From NCBI RefSeq assembly GCF_003334765.1, contig NZ_QOWT01000066.1: a DNA stretch of 5,353 nt, one strand, 5' to 3'. This stretch comes from Escherichia coli. GTDB lineage: Bacteria > Pseudomonadota > Gammaproteobacteria > Enterobacterales > Enterobacteriaceae. The notes below the pieces were generated by a model, which worked only from the letters and a program-made list of their open reading frames with translations, had not been told where the DNA came from and did no database searches. Positions 2,493 to 5,353 of this stretch are shown one piece after another. Made by a program: the position numbers and the translations under genes. How positions within the stretch are numbered: the stretch's first letter is position 1; every line of letters starts with the position of its first letter.

Positions 2493-2501
2493 TTGGAAAT
2501 T

Positions 2502-2577
<76 letters not shown>

Positions 2578-2609
2578 GTCACGTAAAGCTTGTCGAGTTG
2601 ACGGGCGGC

Positions 2610-2638
2610 ATCATATGAATTCCGCCCGAATGTGTCAA
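2610..2638 (-). promoter_or_regulatory. Sigma70 promoter for tRNA-Ala: TTGACA, 17-bp spacer, TATGAT, GC-rich discriminator
   Basis: On the minus strand, -35 TTGACA is rc of 2633-2638 and -10 TATGAT is rc of 2610-2615, with a 17-nt spacer. The discriminator GCCGCCCG follows, typical of stringently controlled stable-RNA promoters. The predicted start lies about 25 nt upstream of the mature tRNA 5' end at 2577. Confidence 0.6.
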
Positions 2639-2721
2639 CGGCAAATTGCAACGTGTAGTTTCAATCGCTGAAAAATCAGGCAAATGAACAATTTTGGAAA
2701 ACCGCTCGCATTCAGTAGTTA

Positions 2722-2757
2722 TTCATGTCACGGTTTCCTGTAAAGTGGTGTTATAAA
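2722..2757 (+). promoter_or_regulatory. Candidate yfeC-yfeD promoter with extended -10 (TGtTATAAA)
   Basis: TG at 2749-2750 followed by TATAAA at 2752-2757 in an AT-rich intergenic region. The -35 is weak (TTCATG/TGTCAC around 2722-2732). Position suits a 5' UTR of about 50 nt. Motif only. Confidence 0.3.
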
Positions 2758-2812
2758 ATGAACTACTAATAGACCCACATACATTCAGGGAATTGTTATG
2801 TTCAAGGAGAGG

Positions 2813-3157
2813 ATGACACCAGATGAACTTGCCAGACTGACCGGCTATAGCCGCCAGACCATTAATAAATGGGTACGCAAGGAAGGCTGGACAACGTCAC
2901 CAAAACCTGGCGTCCAGGGTGGCAAAGCCCGACTGGTTCACGTCAATGAACAGGTTCGTGAATATATTCGCAATGCTGAACGTCCAGAAGGTCAGGGAGA
3001 AGCGCCTGCCCTTTCTGGTGATGCGCCGCTTGAAGTATTGCTGGTGACACTGGCGAAAGAGATGACGCCAGTTGAACAAAAACAGTTTACATCCTTGCTT
3101 CTGCGGGAAGGGATTATCGGATTGTTACAACGCTTAGGGATTCGCGATAGCAAATAA
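2813..3157 (+). CDS. yfeC: Small putative DNA-binding protein of unknown function (YfeC family, DUF1323-like), 114 aa
   Basis: ORF ends at TAA 3155-3157. I chose the ATG at 2813 because it is preceded by AAGGAG (2804-2809) and gives 114 aa, the length I recall for E. coli YfeC. An in-frame upstream ATG at 2798 would give 119 aa. The N-terminal helix-turn-helix-like segment is TPDELARLTGYSRQTINKWVRKEGW. Confidence 0.8.
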   Translation: MTPDELARLTGYSRQTINKWVRKEGWTTSPKPGVQGGKARLVHVNEQVREYIRNAERPEGQGEAPALSGDAPLEVLLVTLAKEMTPVEQKQFTSLLLREGIIGLLQRLGIRDSK

Positions 3158-3158
3158 T

Positions 3159-3551
3159 ATGAAAAGATTACGCAATAAAATGACCACCGAAGAACTGGCT
3201 GAATGCCTCGGTGTGGCTAAACAAACTGTTAACCGTTGGATCAGAGAAAAAGGCTGGAAAACGGAAAAATTTCCCGGCGTGAAAGGCGGTCGTGCCAGAC
3301 TTATTCTGGTCGATACGCAAGTTTGCGAGTTTATTCAGAACACGCCAGCCTTCCATAACACACCAATGTTGATGGAAGCTGAAGAGAGAATTGCTGAATA
3401 CGCTCCTGGAGCACGCGCCCCGGCGTATCGACAAATCATCAACGCGATAGATAATATGACAGACATTGAGCAGGAAAAAGTCGCGCAATTTTTGTCACGT
3501 GAAGGAATTCGCAATTTCCTCGCCCGTCTCGATATTGACGAATCAGCATAA
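3159..3551 (+). CDS. yfeD: Small putative DNA-binding protein of unknown function, paralog of YfeC, 130 aa
   Basis: ATG at 3159 lies 1 nt after the yfeC stop (TAAtATG); the ORF ends at TAA 3549-3551. The N-terminal segment TTEELAECLGVAKQTVNRWIREKGW...PGVKGGRARL parallels YfeC, and the C-terminal segment MTDIEQEKVAQFLSREGIRNFLARL parallels YfeC MTPVEQKQFTSLLLREGIIGLLQRL. Confidence 0.85.
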   Translation: MKRLRNKMTTEELAECLGVAKQTVNRWIREKGWKTEKFPGVKGGRARLILVDTQVCEFIQNTPAFHNTPMLMEAEERIAEYAPGARAPAYRQIINAIDNMTDIEQEKVAQFLSREGIRNFLARLDIDESA

Positions 3552-3557
3552 ATAAAA

Positions 3558-3593
3558 AACGGCAGGATATTATCTCCTGCCGTTTATCTTTTT
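3558..3593. terminator. Bidirectional rho-independent terminator between convergent yfeD and gltX
   Basis: Inverted repeat AACGGCAGGA (3558-3567) and TCCTGCCGTT (3575-3584) around a 7-nt loop. It is flanked by an A-run (3554-3559) on one side and TTTATCTTTTT (3584-3593) on the other, so it gives a hairpin plus U-tract in either direction. Confidence 0.7.
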
Positions 3594-3602
3594 ACACGCT
3601 AA

Positions 3603-5018
3603 TTACTGCTGATTTTCGCGTTCAGCAATAAAATCCAGCGCTTTGTTGATACGCTCGATACTGCGGGTCTTACCAATTGCGTGAACGGTAACATCCAGTG
3701 CTGGAGACTGCCCCGCACCGGTTACGGCGACACGCAGCGGCATACCAACTTTACCCATACCCACTTCCAGCTCATCCGCCGTCGCCTGAATAGCGTGATG
3801 AACGTTTTCAGCGGTCCAGTCAGTAATCGCGGCCAGTTTGTCACGAACCACTTCCAGCGGCTGACGCGCTACCGGACGCAGATGTTTTTTCGCGGCGTCG
3901 GCATCGAACTCAGCAAAATCTTCGTAGAAATAACGGCAGCTCTGTGCCATCTCTTTCAGCGTCTTGCAGCGTTCGCCCAGCAGTTTCACCAGATCAGCCA
4001 GCTGCGGGCCGTTACGGGTATCGATATTTTCCTGCTCAATGTGCCACTGTAAGTGAGTAGCAACATACTCCGGCGGCAGCGCGTTAATGTAGTGATGGTT
4101 CAGCCACAGCAGCTTGTCGGTGTTGAACGCACTGGCAGATTTGCTGACGGCATTCAAAGTGAAGTATTTGATCATCTCTTCACGAGTGAAGATTTCCTGA
4201 TCGCCGTGGGACCAGCCCAGACGCACCAGATAGTTCAGCAGTGCTTCTGGCAAATAACCGTCATCACGATACTGCATTACGCTGACTGCCCCGTGACGTT
4301 TGGACAGTTTTTTACCGTCATCGCCATTGATCATAGAAACGTGCGCGTAAACCGGCACCGGCGCTTTCAGGGCCTTAAGAATGTTGATCTGGCGTGGCGT
4401 GTTGTTGATATGGTCTTCGCCACGGATAACGTGGGTGATTTCCATATCCCAGTCATCGACAACCACACAGAAGTTATAGGTTGGGGAACCATCGGTACGG
4501 CGGATAATAAGATCGTCCAGTTCCTGGTTGCTGAACTCGATCGGACCACGGATCTGATCGTCAAAAACAACAGAACCTTCCTGCGGGTTAGCAAAACGTA
4601 CAACACACGGTTCATCATCAGCATGATGCTCATGGCTGTGGCGGCAGCGACCGTCATAACGCGGCTTCTCACCTTTCGCCATTTGCTCTTCGCGCAGCGC
4701 TTCCAGGCGCTCTTTAGAGCAATAGCATTTATAAGCAGTGCCCTCTTCCAGCATCTGATCGATCACCGCGTTGTAGCGATCAAAACGTTTGGTCTGGTAG
4801 TACGGACCTTCATCCCACTCCAGGCTCAGCCAGTTCATGCCATCCATAATGGCTTCGATAGCTTCCGGCGTGGAACGCTCAAGATCGGTGTCTTCAATAC
4901 GCAGCACGAACTCACCGCCGTGGTTACGTGCAAAAAGCCAGGAGTAAAGAGCAGTACGCGCGCCGCCAACGTGCAGATAGCCTGTTGGGCTTGGCGCGAA
5001 GCGAGTTTTGATTTTCAT
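3603..5018 (-). CDS. gltX: Glutamyl-tRNA synthetase (class I aminoacyl-tRNA synthetase), 471 aa
   Basis: Minus-strand ORF from ATG (rc of 5016-5018) to TAA (rc of 3603-3605). Class I signature HVGG (HIGH variant) at nt 4962-4973 and KLSKR (KMSKS variant) at nt 4296-4310. Cys98, Cys100, Cys125 and His127 are present, matching the Zn ligands recalled for E. coli GluRS. The SD-like TAAGG lies 7 nt upstream of the ATG. Confidence 0.97.
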
Positions 5019-5083
5019 GAAATGGCCTTACGTTTAGAAAGATGCCGACAACCGGCAAATCCTGGAAAAATTAAGTGGGCGAT

Positions 5084-5111
5084 ATTCTATCACTCCCGCC
5101 TGATTCCTCAA
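5084..5111 (-). promoter_or_regulatory. Candidate gltX promoter: TTGAGG, 16-bp spacer, TAGAAT
   Basis: On the minus strand, -35 TTGAGG is rc of 5106-5111 and -10 TAGAAT is rc of 5084-5089. Motif match only; gltX is reported to have several promoters and I cannot assign this one to any of them. Confidence 0.3.
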
Positions 5112-5231
5112 TGTAGTTCGGGTTTCTACCTTACGCATTATTGTTTTCGTTGACAAATTGCGCAACACGGTCTGTTTTGCGATCATCTTGCTTAAATTTA
5201 CGACGAACGAACAATTTCTTTAGAAAATGCG

Positions 5232-5259
5232 TTGACTCATTTTGAACTCTCCCTATAAT
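5232..5259 (+). promoter_or_regulatory. valU tRNA-operon promoter: TTGACT, 16-bp spacer, TATAAT, with AT-rich upstream region
   Basis: -35 TTGACT at 5232-5237 and consensus -10 TATAAT at 5254-5259, followed by discriminator GCGACTCC. The mature tRNA 5' end lies 17 nt downstream of the -10. An AT-rich stretch at 5200-5230 looks like an UP element or Fis-site region. Confidence 0.7.
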
Positions 5260-5276
5260 GCGACTCCACACAGCGG

Positions 5277-5352
5277 GGGTGATTAGCTCAGCTGGGAGAG
5301 CACCTCCCTTACAAGGAGGGGGTCGGCGGTTCGATCCCGTCATCACCCACCA
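5277..5352 (+). tRNA. valU: tRNA-Val, anticodon UAC (first gene of the valU-valX-valY-lysV operon in E. coli)
   Basis: GGGTGATTAGCTCAGCTGGGAGAGCACCTCCCTTACAAGGAGGGGGTCGGCGGTTCGATCCCGTCATCACCCACCA, 76 nt with encoded CCA and TAC at positions 34-36. The gene ends 1 nt before the window edge. Confidence 0.95.
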
Positions 5353-5353
5353 C

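Follow-up and report, generated by a model that had tools for sequence, protein, structure and literature searches.

The gltX–valU intergenic region of the window (the 5,353-nucleotide stretch of Escherichia coli DNA analysed here) is in all probability the known divergent control region of E. coli K-12, in which a valU promoter of the rrn P1 type stands opposite an extended -10 promoter of gltX. The divergent promoter pair is already known, and it is real but ordinary. The locus was studied earlier, as the titles of two papers indicate (Brun, Sanfacon, Breton, Lapointe 1990, J Mol Biol 214:845; Champagne, Lapointe 1998, Mol Microbiol 27:1141), and because experiments in 1990 and 1998 had already dissected the region, its confirmation adds no new biology. 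It offers a textbook-style case in which one growth-phase protein influences both a tRNA operon and a synthetase gene. The addition made here is modest: the promoter-to-promoter geometry is rigid across the family despite sequence drift, and this rigid spacing may bear on how divergent promoters communicate.

Identity and gene layout of the locus

BLAST shows 100% identity between window positions 2497 to 5353 and E. coli K-12 MG1655. NC_000913.3 coordinates equal window coordinates plus 2,515,654, which places the gltX ATG (5018) at 2,520,672 and valU (5277) at 2,520,931. The intergenic region, 5019-5276, shows no difference from MG1655; its 258 bp agree with the roughly 260 bp given for the distance between the gltX start codon and the valU tRNA in a first-pass annotation of this DNA. 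Compared with the published K-12 gltX–valU divergent promoters, the DNA, the genes and their orientation are the same and the control region is without differences, whereas outside it the window carries one tRNA-Ala(GGC) gene and K-12 carries alaX and alaW. The gene order in MG1655 is pdeA, alaX, alaW, yfeC, yfeD and gltX (minus strand), followed by valU, valX, valY and lysV (plus strand). A megablast search with 4950-5353 as query matched every one of the 5,426 complete E. coli genomes, and the matched stretch is annotated as gltX and tRNA-Val. The G+C fraction is 0.33-0.38 over 5180-5259, compared with 0.50-0.68 in the gltX coding part and the tRNA. Two long antisense ORFs, at 4053-5153 (plus strand, opposite gltX) and 5131-5346 (minus strand, opposite valU), were taken as spurious.

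A GltX search of species-representative genomes identified 80 Enterobacteriaceae loci with 92-99% protein identity. The nearest upstream gene of gltX is a divergent tRNA-Val(UAC) gene in all 75 loci with enough upstream DNA, and the gap between the two is 245-260 bp in 72 of these loci and 372-384 bp in the other three. The intergenic regions of these 75 loci were aligned with that of the window (76 sequences), and conservation of each element was expressed as mean identity to the window sequence. The features of the region, with their conservation where it was calculated, are as follows.

5277..5352, plus strand: valU, tRNA-Val(UAC), first gene of valU-valX-valY-lysV (ARAGORN, Rfam, MG1655 annotation)
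5268..5276, plus strand: valU transcription start A5268 and 9-nt leader (Agrawal, Mohanty, Kushner 2014); mean identity of the leader 0.98
5260..5267, plus strand: G+C-rich discriminator GCGACTCC, 8 bp, invariant in 76/76; mean identity 1.00
5232..5259, plus strand: valU core promoter TTGACT-16-TATAAT from the scan, with the -35 TTGACT at 5232-5237 and the -10 TATAAT at 5254-5259; mean identity 1.00 for both hexamers, 0.93 for the spacer
5209..5230, plus strand: UP-element-like A/T tract, -59 to -38 of valU, from the consensus match and its conservation; mean identity 0.89
5190..5204, no strand assigned: Fis-like site I, GCTTAAATTTACGAC, centre 5197, -71 from the valU +1, two mismatches to the consensus; mean identity 0.86
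5164-5189: stretch between the Fis-like sites; mean identity 0.56
5149..5163, no strand assigned: Fis-like site II, GTTGACAAATTGCGC, centre 5156, two mismatches to the consensus GNNYAWWWWWTRNNC
5116-5136: stretch on the gltX side of site II; mean identity 0.48
5106..5111, minus strand: gltX P1 -35 TTGAGG, 16-bp spacer, from the scan, same spacing in 73/76; mean identity 0.96
5101, minus strand: second gltX start, 83-nt leader (Kim et al. 2012 table)
5084..5092, minus strand: gltX P1 extended -10 TGaTAGAAT from the scan, hexamer TAGAAT at 5089-5084; mean identity 1.00 for the -10 and its TG, 0.66 for the n of TGn
5076, minus strand: gltX start A5076, promoter-proximal (P1), 58-nt leader (Kim et al. 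2012 table)
5043..5057, minus strand: gltX leader hairpin UGCCG-GUUGU-CGGCA, then UCUUUCU, from a terminator-like pattern and conservation
5026..5030, minus strand: gltX Shine-Dalgarno, UAAGG on the mRNA, 7 nt before the ATG, read from the sequence
5018-5016, minus strand: gltX start codon ATG (ORF list)
3603..5018, minus strand: gltX coding sequence, glutamate--tRNA ligase, 471 aa (ORF list; identical to MG1655 b2400)

Two promoters in the intergenic region

A consensus promoter scan over 4900-5353, with the shuffled region as control, yielded exactly two sites against 0.3 expected from shuffles, and these are the two promoters that had already been named, one on each strand. Over the whole window, matches at 11/12 positions occur only at the valU and alaW tRNA-operon promoters, and the valU site stands on its own sequence. 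The gltX site belongs to the 9/12 class, of which 10 were found in the window and 6.1 expected. Because this class is near chance, sequence alone gives the gltX site no significance, and it needs outside support.

The promoter of the valU operon

The near-consensus valU promoter of the first-pass annotation, TTGACT-16-TATAAT, is borne out by its 11/12 scan match, by the published start at A5268 and by its conservation, TTGACT-N16-TATAATGCGACTCCA being exact in 76/76 sequences. Cloning of circularised transcripts placed the start 9 nt before the mature 5' end of valU, against 7 nt in EcoCyc (Agrawal, Mohanty, Kushner; PMC4176162). The 9-nt leader is removed by RNase P. Upstream of the hexamers, the UP-element consensus AAAWWTWTTTTNNAAAA (for -57 to -41, reportedly that of Estrem et al. 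1998) has its sole match in the window with at most two mismatches at 5211-5227 (plus strand), where 13/15 specified positions agree. This match is in register with valU, at -57 to -41, and 0.32 matches are expected anywhere in the window; substitutions in the UP region across the alignment preserve A/T. The first-pass annotation had described 5200-5230 as an AT-rich stretch typical of UP elements and of Fis-activated stable-RNA promoters. The UP element stands, with a match in the correct register, but the stretch is only moderately AT-rich, at about 65% A+T. As to Fis activation, a candidate Fis site is present upstream at -71, but it lies outside 5200-5230 except for its last five bases.

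The valU promoter thus combines near-consensus hexamers, a suboptimal 16-bp spacer, a G+C-rich discriminator, an unusually long distance (9 nt) from the -10 to the start and an UP-element match, and by these sequence determinants it is an rrn P1-type stable-RNA promoter. When rrnB P1 from MG1655 was aligned ungapped to window positions 5185-5280, 49/96 positions were identical, including 19/21 across -19 to +2. The two promoters share the 16-bp spacer, TATAAT and the offset (9) of the +1 A, and in each an A/T tract spans -59 to -38 and a 15-mer of the form G...C has its centre at -71. Their discriminators, GCGACTCC in valU and GCGCCACC in rrnB P1, are identical at 6/8 bases, with the common pattern GCG.C.CC. 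The -35 elements differ (TTGACT in valU, TTGTCA in rrnB P1), and valU has a single promoter whereas rrnB has a P1-P2 tandem. Unlike rrnB P1, the valU promoter drives a four-tRNA operon behind a 9-nt leader, with a protein-coding gene diverging from 192 bp away. Promoters of Fis-activated tRNA operons (tyrT, thrU-tufB, leuV) have a strong sigma-70 promoter, an A/T-rich upstream activator and a Fis site near -71. In contrast to tyrT, thrU-tufB and leuV, the upstream activating region of valU doubles as the region upstream of a synthetase gene that lies on the opposite strand.

By analogy with these promoters, valU-valX-valY-lysV would be driven by a single strong sigma-70 promoter of the rRNA P1 type, whose UP element (-59 to -38) would recruit the alpha subunits of RNA polymerase. 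Fis bound at -71, and perhaps also at -112, would stimulate valU in fast growth. The short spacer and the G+C-rich discriminator predict short-lived open complexes, responsive to ppGpp/DksA and to initiating-nucleotide levels. In promoters of this class, growth-rate and stringent (ppGpp/DksA) control rests on short-lived open complexes, and from its class the valU promoter would be expected to be subject to both.

Candidate Fis sites between the two promoters

The Fis consensus GNNYAWWWWWTRNNC was scanned over the whole window, allowing at most two mismatches. It is not enriched (29 matches against 36 expected), so a motif match alone is no evidence, and the case for the candidate sites draws on their position, their pattern of conservation and published titles. 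Site I, centred at -121 from gltX P1, occupies the classical Fis site I position at -71 of valU. Three of its positions never change across the alignment (G at -7, T at -4, C at +7) and its A at -3 is conserved in at least 90% of sequences, while the free positions vary; the commonest form is GTTTAATTTTACGAC. Site I also aligns without gaps with the Fis site I stretch of rrnB P1, GGTTGAATGTTGCGC. Site II is centred at -112 from the valU +1 and at -80 from gltX P1. Its end G and C are invariant in all sequences, and most species carry the form GTTTATAAATCATGC, which departs from the consensus at a single position. Site I stands 41 bp from site II in 68 sequences, and 64 bp from the valU -10 in every matched sequence (75/75). 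Given these patterns, Fis may bind at site I, and perhaps also at site II.

A plus-strand promoter built on the perfect TTGACA at 5150-5155 was considered and rejected, as no usable -10 lies downstream. This TTGACA falls inside Fis-like site II and is found only in Escherichia, its place being taken by TTTATA or TTTAGA in other genera.

Geometry and possible coupling of the two promoters

The mapped starts of gltX (5076) and valU (5268) are 192 bp apart, so that polymerases at the two promoters do not overlap. The first-pass annotation had held that back-to-back placement implies shared growth-rate-dependent control. Adjacency alone is insufficient for this, given the 192 bp between the starts and the word 'non-overlapping' used for the gltX and valU promoters in the 1998 title. 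The prior reports to which the annotation had appealed do exist, the same title stating that Fis influences transcription at both members of the divergent pair. Two conserved Fis-like 15-mers lie between the gltX and valU starts; for an effect on both promoters the source is the wording of that title. Candidate Fis sites in this position would let one growth-phase protein act on both sides. In published work on gltX–valU, Fis is said to activate valU and not to activate gltX, whose transcription it probably lowers. If these effects hold, control would be differential and not simply shared.

In 69/76 sequences the two -10 elements are 170 bp apart, though the intervening sequence diverges. The shorter distance from the gltX ATG to the P1 -10 is, by comparison, spread evenly over 63-67 bp. 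The commonest exception to the 170-bp spacing is 160 bp, in three sequences, and is due to the loss of 10 bp, about one helical turn, in Kluyvera-like sequences. As the spacing is fixed although the stretch it spans is conserved at only about 50%, the relative position of the promoters may matter, and the observation is suggestive only.

The layout could also be historical, gltX and valU being mere neighbours without functional coupling and each promoter being regulated alone: valU would be run as a stable-RNA promoter, and gltX through its own promoters and mRNA processing. With 192 bp between the starts polymerase footprints cannot overlap, the 1998 title itself calls the promoters 'non-overlapping', and the central stretch, 5116-5189, is conserved at only 0.48-0.56, all of which suits such independence. 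Against this stand the divergent gltX/tRNA-Val layout, held in 75/75 loci, the -10 to -10 distance, which stays at 170 bp in 69/76 sequences despite a diverged middle and a variable shorter leader, the conserved Fis-like sites between the promoters, and the influence of Fis on both promoters announced in the published title. Plain neighbourhood is on balance unlikely, with an appreciable chance of being right.

Coupling in a stronger, mechanical form is a more speculative proposal, and a doubtful one: the promoters and the two Fis-like sites might form one phased nucleoprotein unit, in which the output of gltX would be set mechanically, through Fis bending or through negative supercoils generated by the very active valU promoter. 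If that were true, synthetase supply would be tied to the firing of the tRNA operon and not to an independent signal.

The promoters of gltX

The outside support needed by the gltX promoter TTGAGG-16-TAGAAT, also named in the first-pass annotation, comes from a mapped start and from conservation, and the assignment holds. Kim et al. give a gltX start at 2518752 (U00096.2, minus strand) with 33 reads, a 58-nt 5' UTR and the flank ...GATAGAATATCGCCCA, which is A5076 of the window, and a second at 2518777 (U00096.2) with 19 reads and an 83-nt 5' UTR, which is 5101 (PMC3415461). Start 5076 is better supported than 5101 (33 against 19 reads) and falls 7 nt after TAGAAT. P1 has 9/12 hexamer matches and a TG extended -10; the TG stands one base upstream of the hexamer, with the start 6-8 nt downstream, as in extended -10 promoters. 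TGnTAGAAT is present in 76/76 sequences, with only n varying. The first-pass annotation had proposed 5' end mapping on both strands as a check, and the published starts, 5268 (plus strand) and 5076 (minus strand), both lie downstream of the -10 elements it had named. It was incomplete in that it missed the second gltX start, 5101, and the conserved leader hairpin. The -10 element for the 5101 start is likely TACATT at 5115-5110, which lacks a good -35.

On this evidence, gltX is transcribed mainly from TTGAGG-16-TGaTAGAAT with its start at A5076, and more weakly from 5101. P1 would depend on its extended -10, and candidate upstream Fis sites at -80 and -121 may modulate it.

Brun et al. reportedly described, in 1990, three gltX promoters and RNase E processing of gltX transcripts. 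The 5076 end could on that account be a processing product, such as an RNase E cut of longer transcripts, with the true gltX promoters further upstream. A single-read gltX 5' end at -33 in another data set resembles a processed end, and the P1 hexamers match at only 9/12 positions, a chance-level class in the window. The invariance of TGnTAGAAT in 76/76 sequences with only n free is, however, the signature of an extended -10 and is found 7 nt upstream of the mapped end, and 5076 has more reads than the other mapped gltX end. Initiation at A5076 from P1 is accordingly preferred, and a processing origin for this end is improbable.

The start-site table of Kim et al. contains no start for a third gltX promoter. 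Two candidates for such a promoter were rejected: TTGCGC-17-AATAAT at 5165-5137 (minus strand), with a conservation of 0.37, and TTGTCA-17-TAAGGT at 5156-5128 (minus strand), which is unconserved; both are without a mapped start. In three Kluyvera-like loci (L023, L030 and L071) a 10-11 bp deletion (5102-5112) removes the P1 -35 and the 5101 start and keeps TGnTAGAAT; it brings the two promoters to 159-160 bp from each other, shorter by about one helical turn.

The gltX leader

The hairpin of the gltX leader is followed by UCUUUCU and then by the Shine-Dalgarno sequence, around which alignment columns are at least 90% conserved. All five base pairs of the hairpin are intact in 58/58 distinct leaders, with one G-C pair becoming A-U in three leaders and G-U in two. 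Fold energies of the leader, taken as 58 nt or 114 nt, are ordinary (z = -0.24 for the hairpin leader). A search of Rfam over 5019-5276 at E <= 1 found no leader RNA or riboswitch, the Rfam matches in the window being tRNAs only, and the Term-seq tables of Adams et al. contain no 3' end in the gltX 5' UTR. Mendoza-Vargas et al. 2009 report one read with a gltX 5' end at -33, which is window position 5051, inside the hairpin loop, and list an attenuator prediction over 2518702-2518749, corresponding to window 5026-5073 (PMC2760140).

That the hairpin and its U-rich tail (5057-5036) form a transcription attenuator ending gltX transcripts early is suggested by the terminator-like pattern, the 2009 prediction and the conservation of the hairpin in every distinct leader, but it is highly unlikely, above all because no Term-seq 3' end lies in the leader, and also in view of a stem of only 5 bp, an interrupted U tail, the ordinary fold energy and the lack of a leader or riboswitch match in Rfam.

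Like the translational operator of thrS and the attenuation system of pheST, the gltX leader has a conserved structured element adjoining the ribosome-binding site; unlike the thrS and pheST leaders, it has no leader peptide, convincing terminator or unusual folding energy. A tRNA-Glu-like fold is said to have been proposed for the gltX leader by Brun et al. in 1990. A further speculative proposal is that the invariant hairpin might mimic tRNA-Glu or serve GluRS as an operator.

Three species, Intestinirhabdus alba, Entomohabitans teleogrylli and Buttiauxella brennerae (L055, L072 and L077), have an insertion of 112-126 bp at one point of the gltX leader, between 5070 and 5071. Two of the three inserts have ACTCGTCA..ACTTCA termini, and we take them to resemble ERIC/IRU repeats.

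Other features of the locus

In a ChIP-chip study of S. Typhimurium, the gltX–valU intergenic region is among the FabR-enriched regions, together with several other tRNA promoters (PMC4804515). This enrichment may reflect a general ChIP tendency of highly transcribed promoters.

The tRNA-Ala(GGC) gene at 2502-2577 (minus strand) is a single copy by ARAGORN and BLAST, while MG1655 has the alaX-alaW tandem. In BLAST, region 2497-2577 differs from MG1655 by a clean 115-bp collapse, with one repeat unit missing. In a spread sample of E. coli genomes with 12 rows, 11 of them full-length, each full-length row has two tRNA-Ala copies, a two-copy locus being recognised by a match in two pieces and a length of 436 bp against the 321-bp query. 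Recombination specific to this strain, or a collapse during assembly, could account for the single copy. Just upstream of the tRNA-Ala gene lies the alaW promoter, TTGACA-17-TATGAT, at 2638-2610 (minus strand), which matches the consensus at 11/12 positions.

At 3557-3585, in the convergent gap between yfeD and gltX, lies a perfect stem of 11 bp, and T-runs are present on either strand; to judge from this structure it is likely a bidirectional terminator. The Term-seq tables also list a Rho-dependent 3' end antisense to gltX at window position 3780 (NC_000913.3 2519434, plus strand), which implies read-through from yfeC-yfeD into the antisense strand of gltX.
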